Below, piece by piece: positions 11,325 through 16,842 of a stretch of 59,753 nt of DNA. The first letter of the stretch is position 1. Every line of letters begins with the position of its first letter. This DNA comes from a virus. The notes beneath the pieces are model-generated. The model saw only the letters and a program-made list of their open reading frames with translations, ran no database searches and was not told where the DNA came from. The stretch is taken from the UHGV virus genome UHGV-0209512. The stretch is one strand, 5' to 3'. The position numbers and the translations under genes were made by a program.

Positions 11325-11518
11325 TTACCCCTTAAGTTTTGAATCATTCTATCGCAGGCAGCTTTTACGGATGAGTTCTGCCAGTCTTCTTCGATTTGTG
11401 AAGGTTCTTCAGGCGAATAAGCAGCACTAATTAGACATTGATTATAACCTTCAATATAAGCTTGCTTTGCGGTATCTACTATTGCTTGTAAAGCAATATT
11501 GAATAATTGTTGATCCAT
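11321..11518 (-). CDS. Hypothetical protein (65 aa)
   Basis: ORF 11321..11530 trimmed to ATG 11516-11518 preceded by GAGGT. Confidence 0.4.
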   Translation of the reverse strand: MDQQLFNIALQAIVDTAKQAYIEGYNQCLISAAYSPEEPSQIEEDWQNSSVKAACDRMIQNLRGK

Positions 11519-11526
11519 CTTACACC

Positions 11527-11601
11527 TCACAGAATATACATAAACCAGAAATAACCAGCTACGAAAATAGCACCCGCAAATAATTTTAAAAGCTCGAACA
11601 T
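11527..11601 (-). CDS. Candidate 24-aa hydrophobic peptide (MFELLKLFAGAIFVAGYFWFMYIL)
   Basis: ATG at 11599-11601 preceded by GGAGGG (4-nt spacer), TGA at 11527-11529; below the ORF-track size cut-off. Confidence 0.3.
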   Translation of the reverse strand: MFELLKLFAGAIFVAGYFWFMYIL

Positions 11602-11759
11602 TGTTCCCTCCGTTAACTTTATGCTGTAAGTATAGCAGGACTTACGATGTATGCAACAACTTTAGACATGAAATAAATCTATTAGACAGCACGATTTGCC
11701 TTTACCTTTGATCCGTCTAGTTGTACTATTAATGCATAAACAAAGCGGAGGATTACAAA

Positions 11760-11984
11760 ATGGTCATGTTAAATAAAGTATATAGCACAATGGGCGCGGA
11801 TTATAAAGTTGTACGTCACCCGCGTACTGGTAAATTTGAAGCATATATCCGTCCAATGGGTGAAGGTTGGATGTATTACGGTACTTATGACGACGCTGAG
11901 CAAGCTTATGAAGAAGCGGAAAGTGCGGCGGAAGCATCCGAAATTATGGCAAGGTACGACGTCGATGATTACTATCTCAACTAA
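11760..11984 (+). CDS. Small acidic protein with AP2-like DNA-binding domain pattern (74 aa)
   Basis: GGAGG RBS 8 nt upstream of ATG; RTGKFEAYIRPMGEGWMYYGTYDDAEQAYEEA fits the AP2 pattern; only rightward gene inside the leftward block, with its own terminator. Confidence 0.5.
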   Translation: MVMLNKVYSTMGADYKVVRHPRTGKFEAYIRPMGEGWMYYGTYDDAEQAYEEAESAAEASEIMARYDVDDYYLN

Positions 11985-11988
11985 CAAT

Positions 11989-12008
11989 AAAGGGCCGAAA
12001 GGCCCTTT
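11989..12008. terminator. Bidirectional rho-independent terminator AAAGGGCC-GAAA-GGCCCTTT
   Basis: Perfect 8-bp stem with GAAA tetraloop, flanked by A-run upstream and T-run downstream; lies between convergent genes 11760..11984 (+) and 12011..14347 (-). Confidence 0.6.
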
Positions 12009-12010
12009 AT

Positions 12011-14347
12011 TTATTTGCTTAAGTCTTTGAAAACACTCTCAATTGACTCGTCTATATACCATCCCAACCCCCTGAAATTACGCTTTAACGCATCCTCACG
12101 TGTGACTGGGACGAGTGCTCCCATATCTACAAGTTGTTTGATAGTGAGGTCTGTTGCAGTACCTGCTCCCATCCTGTGATTCTTGAATGCTGCTAACCCG
12201 TAGGTTCTGCGTGTGATAGTTGCCTTCGGAATAATACCGTCAACTCGCAGCTCCTTACGATCACATGCAATTTTACCGCCAAGATAGTCTTTGCAGACCT
12301 GACAGATAGCCTTCACACGCGTTTCATCATCGCCGCCAATAGTACCTTTTTCCCATGCATTGATCATGATGTCCTGTCCGTGCGTAACAAAATCTACCGC
12401 CCATTGCATGTGATTAGGCTGAACGACAGGATTGATCCAGTTTTCCCCAACTGCTAACAGGGATGCAAGACGCAGAGCTTTAAGGTGCGCACGGTTCCAC
12501 GGCTGACGAATAGCTTCGTCTTTAGTTGCGTTAATGTGTTCATCACATAACAAGTTAAACTCCCGTTCAATCCTTTCCGCTTCAGGGCTTAACTGGACAG
12601 TAACGGTCTGGAACTTTGCCATTGTCACCAACGTGTGGTTAACGAGATGGCAGACCATGTCCTTTAATTGTTGTGGCATTGTGATTTCAGGATTTTCGTT
12701 TGCAGGAACACGATCCCCTTCATATTGCACAATGTGGAAACGGGACAAGAAACCGTCTTCCATCATTTCACGGGTTAATGCTTCAAAGAATGTGTCCGGT
12801 GTTGTTTCGCCCAGCACGCTAAACGCCACCCCGTCCATCGTTTTGGTATTATTAGCCTTATCAGAATATCCGATACCGCCAACAACATCCATAGCACCAG
12901 ATTTTTGATACACATCTGTGATAGTTTGCTTCAGGGTGTAGTTTGCAGTGCCAGGTTGAGCTGTTGCCATACCTTTAATGGTTTTACCGAACTCGCCGTT
13001 AATATTCACAAACGAAGTGTGATCCGCAAAACTTTTACGCAAGGCAGGGCCGGAAGCATAGTTAGTCATGTCTACAAATTCATGCACTTGCGGTAATTGC
13101 TCGCCCACTTGCTTACAAATATAACTGGGCCCAGCGTGAAGCATTTCTTTACCCACACCTGATCGGGCAATAAGCACAAAGTAACCGTTTAACCCTGTGT
13201 TGGTGATAGTATTCCACACCTTGCCGCATACGCCGGATAAGAATGCTAAAGATGCAGTGATTGCAATTTCTTTTACCGGACGCTGCGAGGCCTTGTAGAT
13301 ATACTTCGCAAGCTCACCAGCAAGTCCCGGCGGCCATTCAATAGCTGTTGCATCAATGGACGTACTTTCTGCAACTACTATTTCACCGGACGGGCTGACT
13401 GTGGTTACAGGCGTTTCCGTTACCTGCTGCATTGCACTGTGTGCGGCTTGCATACGGGCAGCGTAATCCCGCGCCAGCGCCGCTACGTTTTCCTGGGCAA
13501 TGCGCTCACGCTCCATACGACCGCGGCACATGCGCAAACAACGGTCAATATGAACATTGTTCTTGTTAGCCTTCTCACGTTTGCCCAGTGCGCTGTAACG
13601 GAACAGACGACGACATTGCTCATTACTTTCTGTGTAGAATGCATACATAGAAATAAGGGCAAGGTCTGCTTCAGACTGGGAAGGGAATCCCATTTCAACC
13701 CATTCGCCATTGAAGAGGCGTGCATACTTATCGCCGTTGTCTGCTTCAAGGGCACGCTGGTGAATGGTTGCATCGTCTTCTACCGGATCTTTTTCTACCA
13801 GTTCAATTTCATATGTCTTGCGCTGAAGATCAATTTCATTCACAAGCATAGTAAGGTAATGATCACGCTCTGCAACTGGTTTGTTATAGACAGGATTACC
13901 CGTGCAGATAATAAAACGCTCCTGACTATAAACCTCGACACCATCACGTCGGCGTCCTTTACCGATATTTCCTCTTAACCACAGGTGGACACCCAAGCCT
14001 GACCGACTTACTTCAGTGTAAGTATCGAACGCAGTCATGATCTGTTCGAAGCGACGCAACTGTTCCGGCGTTGTGTGCTTCTTGGGATCCGGTTCATTGG
14101 TTGCGTTCTTCACATCCAGGTCGATGCAGGTGAACGGGTCTTGCGCAGTAAGCACAAAGCCAATATAAGGTTTGTTGAAATGAGCGGCACAACCTTTGGC
14201 AGCTTCAAACGTCATAAGCATATCCGGATCGGTAACATCCGCAGCCATCAGGCGCCCGATATCGTTGTCCCACACAAGCGGCTTTTTGTCCGCATCGGCG
14301 ACAGCCCATTGTGGGAAAGCTTTAATTTCAGCGGGAAACAATTCCAT
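12011..14347 (-). CDS. Replication protein with N-terminal primase-polymerase-like domain (778 aa)
   Basis: N-terminal region with GFVLTAQDPFTCIDLDVKN resembles prim-pol catalytic motifs; central P-loop-like ARSGVGKE is not a canonical Walker A; adjacent to the AT-rich repeat region. Confidence 0.5.
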   Translation of the reverse strand: MELFPAEIKAFPQWAVADADKKPLVWDNDIGRLMAADVTDPDMLMTFEAAKGCAAHFNKPYIGFVLTAQDPFTCIDLDVKNATNEPDPKKHTTPEQLRRFEQIMTAFDTYTEVSRSGLGVHLWLRGNIGKGRRRDGVEVYSQERFIICTGNPVYNKPVAERDHYLTMLVNEIDLQRKTYEIELVEKDPVEDDATIHQRALEADNGDKYARLFNGEWVEMGFPSQSEADLALISMYAFYTESNEQCRRLFRYSALGKREKANKNNVHIDRCLRMCRGRMERERIAQENVAALARDYAARMQAAHSAMQQVTETPVTTVSPSGEIVVAESTSIDATAIEWPPGLAGELAKYIYKASQRPVKEIAITASLAFLSGVCGKVWNTITNTGLNGYFVLIARSGVGKEMLHAGPSYICKQVGEQLPQVHEFVDMTNYASGPALRKSFADHTSFVNINGEFGKTIKGMATAQPGTANYTLKQTITDVYQKSGAMDVVGGIGYSDKANNTKTMDGVAFSVLGETTPDTFFEALTREMMEDGFLSRFHIVQYEGDRVPANENPEITMPQQLKDMVCHLVNHTLVTMAKFQTVTVQLSPEAERIEREFNLLCDEHINATKDEAIRQPWNRAHLKALRLASLLAVGENWINPVVQPNHMQWAVDFVTHGQDIMINAWEKGTIGGDDETRVKAICQVCKDYLGGKIACDRKELRVDGIIPKATITRRTYGLAAFKNHRMGAGTATDLTIKQLVDMGALVPVTREDALKRNFRGLGWYIDESIESVFKDLSK

Positions 14348-14368
14348 TATTTATCACCTCCAATCACT

Positions 14369-14650
14369 TTAGCCATAGATCTGTTTCCTCCGCCATTCTT
14401 CATATGCTGAATTATTTGCGTCATATACTTCGCAAGCGTCTTTCATGCTGTCGTACAGTCCAAGGAAGGTTCGCCTTGTTTCCCCGCCTGCATCTACCCA
14501 TGTTAATCGGGCAAGCCATTTACCCGTTTTGTAATCGAAAGTAACGCCCTCACGCCCGCTCACATTTTCCCGAGGTACTCGCGGTTTCCGGCGTGCAAGC
14601 CCGCGACCTTTGAAATTACTGCCCGGGACAGTCCTGCACTTACGACCCAC
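14369..14650 (-). CDS. AP2-domain DNA-binding protein (about 93 aa)
   Basis: GVTFDYKTGKWLARLTW ... FLGLYDSMKDACEVYD matches the AP2 pattern; no in-frame ATG, proposed GTG start at 14648-14650 preceded by GGAGG with 6-nt spacer (track ORF starts at TTG 14668). Confidence 0.45.
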   Translation of the reverse strand: MGRKCRTVPGSNFKGRGLARRKPRVPRENVSGREGVTFDYKTGKWLARLTWVDAGGETRRTFLGLYDSMKDACEVYDANNSAYEEWRRKQIYG

Positions 14651-14855
14651 GACCAACCTCCGACACAATCCGACCAGCGTGCAACATTAAGACGGGCTCT
14701 GCAACTTCGCGGACATAAACGTAAACGTTAGCAATTTTAACTTCGCCAGGCAGCTTACCGCGTAGCGAACATAATTTGCGACGGCTAAGACCGAAGCGCT
14801 TTTCGATTTCTGATGTGGTTATGTATTTAAGATCAAATTCTTTTTGATGGTCCAT
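14640..14855 (-). CDS. Helix-turn-helix DNA-binding protein (71 aa)
   Basis: ATG 14853-14855 preceded by GGAGG (5-nt spacer); ITTSEIEKRFGLSRRKLCSLRGK looks like an HTH; its stop overlaps the AP2 gene start. Confidence 0.5.
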   Translation of the reverse strand: MDHQKEFDLKYITTSEIEKRFGLSRRKLCSLRGKLPGEVKIANVYVYVREVAEPVLMLHAGRIVSEVGRGS

Positions 14856-15011
14856 ACCTACCTCCTAACAGCACTATACACAATACATACCGGCGCAGCC
14901 ACAATTATTCCACCTGAAGTTATGATGTGAGAGGATTGTTAATATATAACCACATGTGATGGAAAGTTTTGGGTAGGAATAGTTGGTGCTCCACAGTTTG
15001 CGCAATGTGAC

Positions 15012-15052
15012 CGAAAGTTTTGTGAGTTTTGCGAAGTTTTGCGAAGTTTTGT
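15012..15052. repeat. Tandem phased repeats (G/C)GA(A/G)GTTTTG, four copies at 9-10 bp spacing
   Basis: AGTTTT at 15016, 15025, 15035 and 15045 (a further copy at 14965); inverted copy CAAAACTCGCAAAA near 15450. Confidence 0.5.
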
Positions 15053-15242
15053 GGTGCCACTGTTGCTAAAAACTTTAATAAAAACAATAAGTTGGTGCAG
15101 TAAGTTTTTGCGTTTTACCCCAAAACGCATTTTTTACCCTAACACCCAAATCCCGACTGTTAGTAAAAAACGTATATAAATCAATAATATAGATACTAAA
15201 TGAATAGTGAATGGAATGGGTAGAAATCCAAATGATGGAAGT

Positions 15243-15257
15243 GGAATAAATTATTCC
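15243..15257. promoter_or_regulatory. Perfect 15-bp palindrome GGAATAA-A-TTATTCC (candidate operator)
   Basis: 7-bp arms around a single central base, read directly from sequence. Confidence 0.45.
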
Positions 15258-15525
15258 TACTTGATAGAATAATGGAATCGGTACTCCAGAGCGCAAAAAC
15301 CTAAAACTTTCAGTCAACAGACTAAAAACGGATAGAAACTAAAAGTTAATAAGTAATACCATAAATATATATAAAATAAGGATTTATTAGTAATGTATAT
15401 AGTACCTATTTGTATTATTTGAATGTTTTTGGGTCATTGTTAAAAAGTCCCAAAACTCGCAAAAAGTGAAAGAATACAATTCGTGACAGGATTGTTAATG
15501 GAATAAGGTGTATGGATATACAGTA

Positions 15526-15570
15526 TTATTCCAGATTCCGGAATAATTGGAATAATGGAATAAATTATTG
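15526..15570. promoter_or_regulatory. Second cluster of the GGAATAA/TTATTCC motif (inverted repeat plus near-palindrome)
   Basis: TTATTCC (15526-15532) and GGAATAA (15540-15546) around palindromic ATTCCGGAAT; then GGAATAA-A-TTATTG at 15557-15570. Confidence 0.45.
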
Positions 15571-15684
15571 AACTATTGTGATCGGAAGGTATATCAAGCT
15601 ATAATGCGCTTAATCGCGGGATATTGGAGGAGGACTTTATTGCGCGGTTAACCGGACCAGTAGGAGGACTGGCCCGGAAGTAGT

Positions 15685-16011
15685 TTAGAGCTGTACAGGT
15701 GTGAAGTGGGCTAGCGTATCGTCGGACATAATACCCGACAGTTTTTCGCATACCCAGTCGGACCAAATGCTGTCCGGTTCCTGGCGATGCACAAACCAGA
15801 TTTCGGATGTGCCTTCTTTGCGCATCGGTTGCACTTCTACAAGGAACTTGTCCTGCATAAGGCGGGTGAAGCATACGCTGGTCATTGGGACCGGCTTTTC
15901 GTGTTTATTGTAATAAGGAGTCAGTAATTTATTTCCGAAGTTGGCAACTTCATAAACTGTTCCTTTGCGAAGACCTCTGATGTCTGTGTAAGAGCGGATA
16001 AATGTTTTCAT
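15685..16011 (-). CDS. Hypothetical protein (108 aa)
   Basis: ATG at 16009-16011 with GGAG upstream; first gene downstream of the AT-rich region. Confidence 0.5.
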   Translation of the reverse strand: MKTFIRSYTDIRGLRKGTVYEVANFGNKLLTPYYNKHEKPVPMTSVCFTRLMQDKFLVEVQPMRKEGTSEIWFVHRQEPDSIWSDWVCEKLSGIMSDDTLAHFTPVQL

Positions 16012-16061
16012 TTTTCGTTACTCCTAGGGCTCCCGCAGAAGCCCGTCAGTGAACAGTGTGG

Positions 16062-16226
16062 TTATAGAAAATATAGATTGCCTTGTAGGTTGTATTTAAT
16101 TCTAACTTTATCGCGCCATTTTATATAAGCTACACGAGGACTATCAGCAGAGCTTGCCATTTCTTGCCCATTCCAGCAGAACCAAAGACCGCCTTCAAAA
16201 TATATCCGTGGTTTATTAAGTTTCAT
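16062..16226 (-). CDS. Candidate small protein (54 aa)
   Basis: ATG 16224-16226 preceded by GGAGG (6-nt spacer), open to TAA at 16062-16064; translation verified codon by codon; not in ORF track. Confidence 0.4.
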   Translation of the reverse strand: MKLNKPRIYFEGGLWFCWNGQEMASSADSPRVAYIKWRDKVRIKYNLQGNLYFL

Positions 16227-16227
16227 A

Positions 16228-16842
16228 TCAAGCCTCCAGTCCGTGGAACTTTCTCCAAGCGTAGAACTGAATGGCGACTGTTGTCCCGTTGTAAGAAGGC
16301 ATTGCTGCTTTCATTTCTTTCAGCTCCGGCGTGCGGCCCAGTTCAGCTAAAAGTTTGTCGCCCATTGCCCACACTTCGGCAGTTTTTCCTTTTAGAGGCT
16401 TGCGAGCGCCATTTTTGAAATCACAGCGAGCAGCTTTTGCATCTTGTTTTGGCGCGGCAGCTTTTGGCTCTTCAATTTTGATTTCAGAAACCTGCGTGAC
16501 AGCTTTTGCATGTTTCATATCTTTCTCTTCCTCCTGCTCCAGAGCTTCGAGGCAGCTTTTAACAATTTCCGGATTTACCATCGGGCGCAGTACCGAGACG
16601 CTGGCAGCTGGCGCGGCGGTCGGCGCCGGGACTTTCTGCTCCGGCTGTTGCGCTTTTTTATGGTCGCGCAGTACCTGAAGCACTTCCTTTTCGACGATGT
16701 AAAAACCGATCTCGTCCTGATGGATTAACTGCTCGTGTGCATCGCGTGCAACCTGCCCCCAGCGGGTCTTCAGAGCGCGGCGTGCATTGGTCTTCATGGT
16801 GTAGCGCATTTTATCCTGTTCGCGGTGAGTTACTTTAGACAT
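16228..16842 (-). CDS. Hypothetical protein with charged low-complexity linker and C-terminal putative DNA-binding module (204 aa)
   Basis: C-terminal VWAMGDKLLAELGRTPELKEMKAAMPSYNGTTVAIQFYAWRKFHG aligns with the C-terminus of the 7..810 product. Confidence 0.55.
   Translation of the reverse strand: MSKVTHREQDKMRYTMKTNARRALKTRWGQVARDAHEQLIHQDEIGFYIVEKEVLQVLRDHKKAQQPEQKVPAPTAAPAASVSVLRPMVNPEIVKSCLEALEQEEEKDMKHAKAVTQVSEIKIEEPKAAAPKQDAKAARCDFKNGARKPLKGKTAEVWAMGDKLLAELGRTPELKEMKAAMPSYNGTTVAIQFYAWRKFHGLEA

Follow-up and report, generated by a model that had tools for sequence, protein, structure and literature searches.

An evolutionary route from endonuclease to transcription factor was reportedly proposed for the AP2 domain by Magnani et al. 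in 2004, and the phage AP2 gene described here fits that route. BldC (PDB 6ama) binds direct repeats as head-to-tail multimers, and phased direct repeats are the type of site used by BldC, Xis and Cox. CasPRs, which combine a CapR with an AP2 domain and are encoded in prophages of Bacillota, silence cas genes, and CapR is required for this activity (bioRxiv 10.64898/2026.02.23.707548). In the present study two overlapping genes at 14369–14855 of UHGV virus genome UHGV-0209512 were analyzed; the whole 59,753-nt stretch of DNA is referred to as the window. The genes are predicted to encode a 71-amino acid (aa) winged-helix protein with a helix-turn-helix (HTH) and a 93-aa protein with an AP2 fold. 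The simplest reading of the sequence comparisons below is that the AP2 gene represents the nuclease-free, DNA-binding half of an HNH-AP2 homing endonuclease that has been kept by selection.

The 4.6 kb around the gene pair were shown to share 93–96% identity with members of the genus Seuratvirus (Queuovirinae), among them the Escherichia phages PLYYY01, OddieOddie and Skure, and judged by this similarity the window is essentially one ~60-kb Seuratvirus genome, i.e., that of an E. coli phage. Both genes are located on the minus strand within a long leftward gene block, where the order leftward is a repeat-rich spacer, the winged-helix gene, the AP2 gene, a primase-helicase gene and a bidirectional terminator. 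Cistron 1 (14640..14855, minus strand) was assigned to a MerR/excisionase-like winged-helix protein from its open reading frame (ORF), PHROG_11967, AlphaFold, Foldseek, tblastn and the ratio of non-synonymous to synonymous substitution rates (dN/dS). Cistron 2 (14369..14650, minus strand) was assigned to an accessory AP2-fold protein with a GTG start from its ORF, dN/dS, a homologous ATG, a WRI1 profile match and a fold match to 1gcc. Cistron 3 (12011..14347, minus strand) is predicted to encode a 778-aa primase-polymerase/helicase (Pfam DUF3987, 3.7e-12; NrS-1 polymerase HBD, 1.5e-6), and its homologues in relatives are annotated as primase or primase/helicase. The genes of the pair have been annotated before, as hypothetical proteins of a known phage genus, and every part is of a known kind.

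The first-pass annotation described a 71-aa gene overlapping an AP2 ORF without an in-frame ATG, and both ORFs were verified: on the minus strand the AP2 frame extends without a stop from 14668 to 14369, and its sole in-frame ATG falls within the domain (SMKD). The start proposed there, a GTG at 14650–14648, was borne out as well. It is preceded by the Shine-Dalgarno (SD) sequence GGAGG (14661–14657, minus strand), which lies in the last codons of the HTH gene, with a spacer of 6 nt. The TAA of the HTH gene (14642–14640) is found 8 nt beyond the GTG, giving an 11-nt overlap of cistrons 1 and 2; in the HTH frame, the gene-strand sequence of this junction is GTG TCG GAG GTT GGT CGT GGG TCG TAA. 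A DNA alignment of the junction showed that the codon aligned with the GTG of the window and OddieOddie is ATG in two other loci, L009 and L014, with SD-like purine runs at the matching place (GGGTGAG and AGGAG, respectively). A stop codon ends the upstream part of the L009 AP2 frame two codons before this ATG, so the start in L009 cannot be located further upstream and a frameshift fusion is not conserved. An HTH-AP2 frameshift fusion, which the window alone would permit (there the AP2 frame, at +1 to that of the HTH gene, has 13 upstream codons without a stop), was ruled out on this ground. The same GTG was already called by GenBank annotators in OddieOddie and ECP2304.

The AP2 copy in L008, a 1.7-kb metagenome contig, showed 77% identity, a shorter N-terminus and an ATGA stop/start overlap. 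AP2-family genes of 80, 93–95, 147–151, and 207 aa were found to overlap the HTH stop by 4, 11, 20, and 4 nt, respectively. A start near the upstream stop, together with an SD inside the upstream gene, is a layout kept in relatives. A start at GTG 14650 with some form of coupling to the upstream cistron is well supported at sequence level, and the coupling suggested initially is strongly backed by the overlap, SD and start kept in relatives. Substitutions were counted over the 93 AP2 codons by the Nei-Gojobori method. Compared to OddieOddie, the window gene showed 17 synonymous and 1 non-synonymous substitutions (dN/dS 0.015), compared to ECP2304 12 and 1 (dN/dS 0.022), and compared to L009, an IMG/VR contig with 90% aa identity, 23 and 12 (dN/dS 0.12). 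Judged by these counts, the AP2 ORF is a real gene under strong purifying selection.

The 93-aa protein did not reach the curated cut-off of Pfam AP2 (PF00847; 21.7 vs 33.3 bits, E 2.5e-4), and P0002 gave 23.6 bits against the same family. A profile built from six sequences of the family matched the solved AP2 factor WRI1 (E 2.4e-7). In the AlphaFold model (pLDDT 74, core 84–88), strands at residues 36–39, 44–52, and 58–66 and a helix at 69–92 form a three-stranded antiparallel sheet against a C-terminal helix, and the top PDB match of this model was the AtERF1–DNA complex 1gcc (prob 1.0, TM 0.67, root-mean-square deviation 2.0 Å over 51 columns). The AP2-domain label given earlier to the 14369–14650 ORF is therefore reasonable at the level of the predicted fold. 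The protein has a net charge of +9 and an isoelectric point (pI) of 10.0, and its N-terminal residues 1–34 alone have a net charge of +9. The net charge points, indirectly, to a DNA-binding character.

In PHROG, the window protein matched HNH-endonuclease families 99 and 4578 over their AP2 segment. When 1.84 billion cluster representatives were searched exhaustively with HMMER, 87 matches at E 1e-3 or better were obtained, and the relatives beyond the gene's own cluster were 127–1289 aa long, except for one 95-aa protein. Ten sampled matches comprised seven HNH_3+AP2 proteins, two multi-AP2 proteins and one stand-alone protein. For the 93-aa protein, no HNH match was found in Pfam or PHROG, and only 34 residues precede its AP2 core. 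Its gene is free-standing between the HTH and primase genes, a placement of the homing-endonuclease type, and is patchily distributed among relatives: it was found in just 10 GenBank phage records, compared to 34 Seuratvirus records for a neighbouring 74-aa core gene.

Four types of locus were distinguished. In type A (Seurat, CAjan, Greed) the gap between the HTH and primase genes is 6 nt with no gene in it, and a gene of 247–260 aa is located upstream of the HTH gene. The remaining types have only spacer upstream of the HTH gene. In type B, to which the window belongs, an AP2 gene of 93–95 aa is present, sometimes followed by a small gene and/or an HNH endonuclease; in type C (STP-SP5 and several metagenome contigs) a 147–151-aa protein is encoded between HTH and primase; and in Hafnia phage yong3 the place is taken by a 207-aa 'HNH homing endonuclease'. 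The C-terminal 73 residues of the type-C protein showed 27% identity to the window AP2 protein (E 2e-7). The C-terminus of the yong3 protein (UPT53026.1) showed 42% identity to it over 60 residues; its N-terminus matches PHROG_99 (HNH endonuclease, E 2.6e-15) and no longer Pfam HNH_3. In alignment, the yong3 protein (L007, 2605–3228) was also seen to be without the segment between the His and NL(R) motifs, and it is probably a catalytically dead intermediate. An intact HNH_3+AP2 endonuclease is found directly upstream of the primase gene in ECP2304 (WVH02358.1; 3.2e-21 against HNH_3), SA80RD and Dru_SM1. The AP2 gene was initially taken for a regulator gene; that it is a gene was confirmed, and what this view missed is that it is an accessory insertion, akin to the DNA-binding domains of homing endonucleases.

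Some further observations were made on these loci. The endonucleases of ECP2304 (L003, 3275–3872), SA80RD and Dru_SM1 open with the first 16 codons of the resident primase, MELFPAEIKAFPQWAV (compare window 14300–14347), and the primase downstream of the invading endonuclease has a recoded MKLFPDEIKQYNQWAI at its start. The arrangement resembles homing into codons ~10–20 of the primase gene, with a resistant target that would have been co-converted. The type-C proteins (L010, 3706–4149; L018, 3203–3658) have an N-terminal region of ~75 aa (TVTIGSIMAFLNLPERDLTKIQ...), which by eye resembles a second excisionase-type HTH fused to AP2; no family match was found for this region. Relatives have a third slot between the AP2 and primase genes that is absent from the window and holds variable proteins of 71–97 aa (L001, 4355–4600; L008, 825–1049; L009, 2422–2715; L010, 4146–4430; L014, 778–1020; L020, 3201–3416). 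These gave no Pfam matches, and the C-terminal halves (e.g., of OddieOddie gp64) weakly resemble the last AP2 strand and helix (hhalign, 16% probability over 23 columns). The 242–260-aa gene of type A (L002, 4626–5408; L004, 4146–4892; L020, 2207–2935), upstream of the winged-helix gene, belongs to PHROG_27223 (function not assigned), and each variant of it is accompanied by a distinct family of upstream repeats (TATAGGG or CACTATA).

The 71-aa protein encoded by cistron 1 showed no Pfam or NCBIfam match, and its sole family match was PHROG_11967 (function not assigned; E 3e-23). Its AlphaFold model (pLDDT 83.5) has the order beta-alpha-alpha-beta-beta-alpha, with the winged-helix topology E11-13, H14-21, H25-31, E38-41, E44-48 at pLDDT ~88–92. 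Foldseek matches in the PDB were SoxR, BldC, RacA, RdfS, Tn916 Xis and GIsul2 Xis (TM 0.5–0.68, prob 0.75–0.94, E 0.14 or worse), and the yong3 ortholog is annotated 'regulatory protein cox'. By tblastn the gene was found in 50 phage records across Queuovirinae, including Pantoea, Pseudomonas, Xanthomonas and Providencia phages, a distribution by which it is core to this subfamily, and its dN/dS is 0.1–0.25. The HTH label of the first-pass annotation is thus right at the level of the modelled fold, a predicted winged helix, and unproven at family level.

The 829-bp spacer upstream of the operon (14856–15684) was found to be dense with repeats resembling protein sites. Four direct repeats, AGTTTTGYGA on the plus strand and CAAAACT on the gene strand, are placed 9–10 bp apart at 15011..15054 and form a candidate site for the winged-helix protein; on the gene strand the array reads CAAAACT-tcg / CAAAACT-tcg / CAAAACT-ca / CAAAACT-ttcgg (15054–15011). 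For a comparison of repeats and alleles, the 300 nt upstream of the operon were aligned in 16 loci. The repeat units were shown to co-vary with the recognition-helix allele of the winged-helix protein, with four alleles and four repeat families. The recognition helix SRRKLCSLRGKLPGEV, present in all type B and C loci, goes with CAAAACT, and TLTR(Q/I)RDRIPGAV, present in L008 and yong3, goes with A(T/C)AAACC at the same position and phasing; the allele of Seurat and CAjan goes with TATAGGG and that of Greed with CACTATA. In the L008 array the flanks ttattaaagtttttagc ... ACTTTCGGTCA are kept and the units alone are altered. Since L008 retains the AP2 gene (77% identity) but has switched both the HTH allele and the array, the array tracks the winged-helix protein and not AP2. 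Judged by this covariation, the 15011–15054 array is probably the binding site of the winged-helix protein rather than that of AP2. In searches for more diverged copies, IMG/VR gave one or two loci, JGI metagenomes one locus at 98% identity and a word-indexed protein search only close relatives, so that the L008 contrast was not replicated.

A perfect palindrome, GGAATAA-A-TTATTCC (GGAATAAATTATTCC), is located at 15243..15257 and is the best available candidate for an AP2 target. It is present in the window, OddieOddie, ECP2304, L009, L010, L013 and STP-SP5, with half of it at the contig end of L008, and is missing from yong3 and from each of the six type-A loci. The GenBank records with the palindrome segment are exactly the 10 that carry AP2 and, in addition, STP-SP5; the array segment was found in the same ten AP2 records. 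Within the genome, 8 of the 19 copies of GGAATAA fall in 14905–15563, and the total of 19 was reached by none of 100 shuffles. Five copies in mixed orientation form a distal cluster at 15500..15563, which is AP2-independent: four copies are preserved in Dru_SM1, a phage without the AP2 gene and without HTH allele 1. The earlier link of AP2 to palindromes at 15243 and 15526 was not supported by these comparisons, as the latter belongs to the cluster that is intact in the AP2-less Dru_SM1 and the former co-occurs with AP2 only as part of a linked block. As for the regulatory hub proposed with it, the spacer is indeed rich in site-like repeats, but the best link between protein and site is that of the HTH protein to the 15011–15054 array, not that of AP2 to the palindromes.

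Other features of the spacer include a single extra repeat unit, CCCAAAACTTTCC on the gene strand (14965..14977), between the array and a promoter-like site, CTCACA-N16-TGgAATAAT (14904..14931, minus strand), which was found by promoter scan ~50 nt before the HTH start. In an alignment by eye the outline of this site was kept in all variants without a gp62-like gene, with AATAAT, AATAGT or AATATT as −10-like hexamer. An AT-rich non-coding core (15294..15478) is kept across all locus types; it showed 82–92% identity to Seurat and Greed while the flanking spacer is unrelated, and a promoter-like TTAACA-N18-AATAAT is located within it at 15443..15414 (minus strand). The core region may serve as a replication origin or as an early promoter. 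The cumulative GC skew has its global minimum at 14914; as proof of an origin at 14.9 kb this was set aside, the curve being flat to 19.5 kb, and the skew is suggestive only. The plus strand of the spacer has a terminator-like hairpin with a T-run (15109–15129) and a promoter-like TTGTGA-N18-TATAAT (15576–15605), which could reflect antisense transcription or chance. No Rfam match to a non-coding RNA was found at E 1 or better over 11400–16100.

Taken together, we consider it reasonably probable, though far from certain, that the replication operon starts with a winged-helix autoregulator or organiser and a translationally coupled, nuclease-free AP2 binder derived from a homing endonuclease. 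Early leftward transcription through the spacer would yield a single mRNA that encodes the winged-helix protein, AP2 and the primase-helicase. The winged-helix protein would bind head-to-tail as a multimer to the four 10-bp-phased CAAAACT repeats, ~160–200 bp before its own start, and its binding would feed back on the operon and/or organise the adjoining origin-like AT-rich region. In view of the overlap of 11 nt and of an SD within cistron 1, ribosomes finishing this cistron, or just done with it, would initiate at GTG 14650. HNH-AP2 endonucleases would have repeatedly invaded the slot between the winged-helix and primase genes, with loss of the nuclease half and retention of the DNA-binding half, and the AP2 protein, made early together with the winged-helix protein, would bind DNA sequence-specifically without cutting it. 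A wider proposal, which we regard as speculative and rather unlikely, is that the winged-helix allele, the iteron array, the GGAATAA palindrome and the AP2-family gene make up an exchangeable cassette that sets the specificity of the replication operon and origin in Queuovirinae, in which the DNA-binding domain of a homing endonuclease would be caught becoming a regulator or origin factor. If this were true, four stages would be seen in one slot, i.e., intact HNH-AP2, degenerate HNH with AP2, an extra domain with AP2, and AP2 alone, and the cassette would offer a natural case, open to experiment, of the route from endonuclease to transcription factor that was proposed for AP2/ERF proteins.

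A number of points weigh against the account given above. Fold-search E-values are weak (0.1 or worse) for both small domains, and the Pfam AP2 score is beneath the gathering score. The direction from endonuclease to AP2-only gene is drawn from distribution and not from a rooted phylogeny, and the yong3 intermediate is only 42% identical over 60 residues. No mRNA structure hiding the SD and GTG, by which coupling would be enforced, was found at the junction, where the fold energy is no better than that of shuffles (z 0.38). In type-A phages the covariation of HTH and array is confounded by the co-varying ~250-aa upstream gene, and the clean contrast between alleles 1 and 2 is provided by two loci, L008 and yong3. 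Because AP2 is inherited in a single block with the HTH allele and the proximal spacer, the palindrome cannot be assigned to AP2 by co-occurrence. Finally, type-C AP2 domains are only 27% identical and have a very different sheet surface, yet are found beside the same palindrome.

The AP2 ORF might instead be a decaying, non-functional remnant of a homing endonuclease, with a GTG and GGAGG that are fortuitous. Homing endonuclease genes are expected to degenerate once fixed; the slot is one that homing endonucleases use, the relatives of the protein are endonucleases, and the ORF has no ATG start and is represented in 10 GenBank records only. The low dN/dS, however, argues against a neutral remnant, and the counts of 17 vs 1 and 23 vs 12 synonymous and non-synonymous substitutions indicate strong purifying selection. 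In addition, a GTG or ATG start preceded by an SD is retained in the different lineages, the frame is intact in copies down to 77% identity, and the overlap with the upstream stop is kept in four architectures, all of which makes a mere remnant highly improbable in our view. A factor for anti-defence or competition, acting by CasPR-like silencing of host or rival genes or as a shield of a homing site, would suit an accessory gene in a hot spot of gene turnover, and nuclease-free phage AP2 proteins of the CasPR type do silence cas genes via binding to coding sequences (bioRxiv 10.64898/2026.02.23.707548). The window protein, however, has no CapR domain, which is required according to the same report (bioRxiv 10.64898/2026.02.23.707548), and its gene is located in a replication operon and not in an anti-CRISPR locus. 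ECP2304 has both the AP2 gene and an HNH-AP2 endonuclease at the 5′ end of its primase gene, i.e., invasion was not prevented, which speaks against a protection of the homing site in the primase gene by AP2. We find a role of this kind improbable.

Two further explanations concern the role of AP2 at the operon. AP2 might be a transcription factor with the GGAATAA palindromes at 15243 and 15526 as operators, forming a hub with the HTH protein. The enrichment of GGAATAA in the spacer (8/19 genomic copies) supports this, as does the finding of the 15243 palindrome beside AP2-family genes wherever enough upstream sequence was available and in none of the six type-A loci; L008, with the other HTH allele but the same AP2, still has a half-palindrome at its contig end. 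On the other hand, the distal cluster persists in the AP2-less Dru_SM1, type-C AP2 domains with 27% identity flank the same palindrome, yong3 has an AP2-family protein and no GGAATAA, and the GGAATAA copy at 14905 falls on a promoter −10-like hexamer and has a different sequence in type C. For AP2 domains, which mostly bind as monomers, a palindromic site is not expected, and the co-occurrence is explained by linkage. We therefore regard operators for AP2 at these sites as possible but doubtful. Alternatively, the HTH protein, AP2 and the arrays might form an exchangeable origin-specificity cassette that marks the AT-rich origin and loads the primase-helicase, and does not regulate transcription. 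Consistent with this, the genes are located directly upstream of the primase-helicase gene and are predicted to be co-transcribed with it, iteron-like 10-bp arrays adjoin the conserved AT-rich core, the global minimum of the cumulative GC skew at 14914 falls in the spacer, and the module swaps as a block between phages with 95%-identical primase. The skew is, however, flat from 15.5 to 19.5 kb and its minimum is partly made by G-rich repeats, the AP2 gene is dispensable in most Seuratviruses, and to our knowledge no origin has been mapped in this genus; a purely replicative role seems unlikely to us.

The 74-aa gene (11760..11984, plus strand), which has its own GGAGG, was found in 34 of 35 Seuratvirus matches at 95.9% identity or more and is, by this distribution, core. 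That it is the only rightward gene in the leftward block agrees with the OddieOddie record, where it is the lone plus-strand gene annotated in this stretch. The terminator first ascribed to it alone is common to the primase operon: the hairpin at 11986–12011 has 11 pairs with a T-run on one side and an A-run on the other, is annotated on both strands in the Seurat record and, being palindromic and placed between convergent genes, ends the primase operon too. The AP2 likeness of the encoded protein is weak throughout (Pfam E 0.0059, PHROG_99 E 0.0027, PDB WRI1 E 0.017, and BLASTP E 0.014 to the AP2 part of the ECP2304 endonuclease), i.e., the resemblance noted earlier is consistent, but the core remains below family thresholds. 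The protein is acidic (net charge −7, pI 4.4), and a 45%-identical homolog in STP-SP5 has a net charge of −10. DNA binding should therefore not be assumed for it, and its extension from the AP2 protein to this gene was not supported. A comparison of the 74-aa family with AP2 by hhalign gave nothing, the family alignment being spoiled by a non-homologous yong3 row. A resemblance to AcrIIA4 (E 0.055–0.077; 13.5 bits vs a cut-off of 40) was taken as chance. Compared to Seurat, the rate of synonymous substitution (dS) of the gene was 0.07 and that of the adjacent primase gene 0.83, which suggests recent exchange or extra constraint at nucleotide level. Elsewhere in the window, a 204-aa minus-strand protein (16228–16842) showed a weak match to the 'homing endonuclease associated repeat' PF18780 (E 0.016).

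With this comparison, two 'hypothetical proteins' that head the replication operon of a well-sampled coliphage genus have received assignments at fold level, and a non-ATG start was settled by comparison with relatives. A testable prediction is that the 71-aa protein binds the CAAAACT array and that allele swaps switch specificity. An AP2 gene without a nuclease is the kind of step invoked for AP2 transcription factors and, lately, for the CasPR silencers. The effect is modest, since the genes had been annotated before, belong to a narrow family and have a function that is still inferred; the gene pair is neat but fairly ordinary phage biology, the interest of which lies in a retained nuclease-free AP2 gene and a clean covariation of allele and iterons.

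Compared to known systems, the modelled 71-aa protein shares size and beta-alpha-alpha-beta-beta topology with BldC, Tn916 Xis, RdfS, P2 Cox and AlpA, and it likewise has phased direct repeats as candidate sites, as do BldC, Xis and Cox. It differs from MerR- and excisionase-like proteins in having no Pfam or NCBIfam match and no integrase or recombination context, being coupled instead to the primase-helicase operon of a virulent phage. The window AP2 protein is, like the CasPRs, phage-encoded, nuclease-free and akin to DNA-binding modules of endonucleases, but it has two cysteines (C5, C73), no N-terminal domain and no CapR zinc finger, and its gene is located in the replication operon of a lytic coliphage and not in an acr locus. 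With plant AP2/ERF proteins (AtERF1, 1gcc; WRI1, 7wq5) it shares the three-stranded sheet on one helix, and it differs from them as a single-domain phage protein with a longer C-terminal helix (69–92) and a basic N-terminal arm. To the HNH-AP2 homing endonucleases (HNH_3 + AP2; PHROG 99/4578) it is related by a homologous AP2 domain and by the same slot between winged-helix and primase genes, whereas the window protein is only 93 aa long, has a basic arm in place of a nuclease and stands alone under purifying selection.

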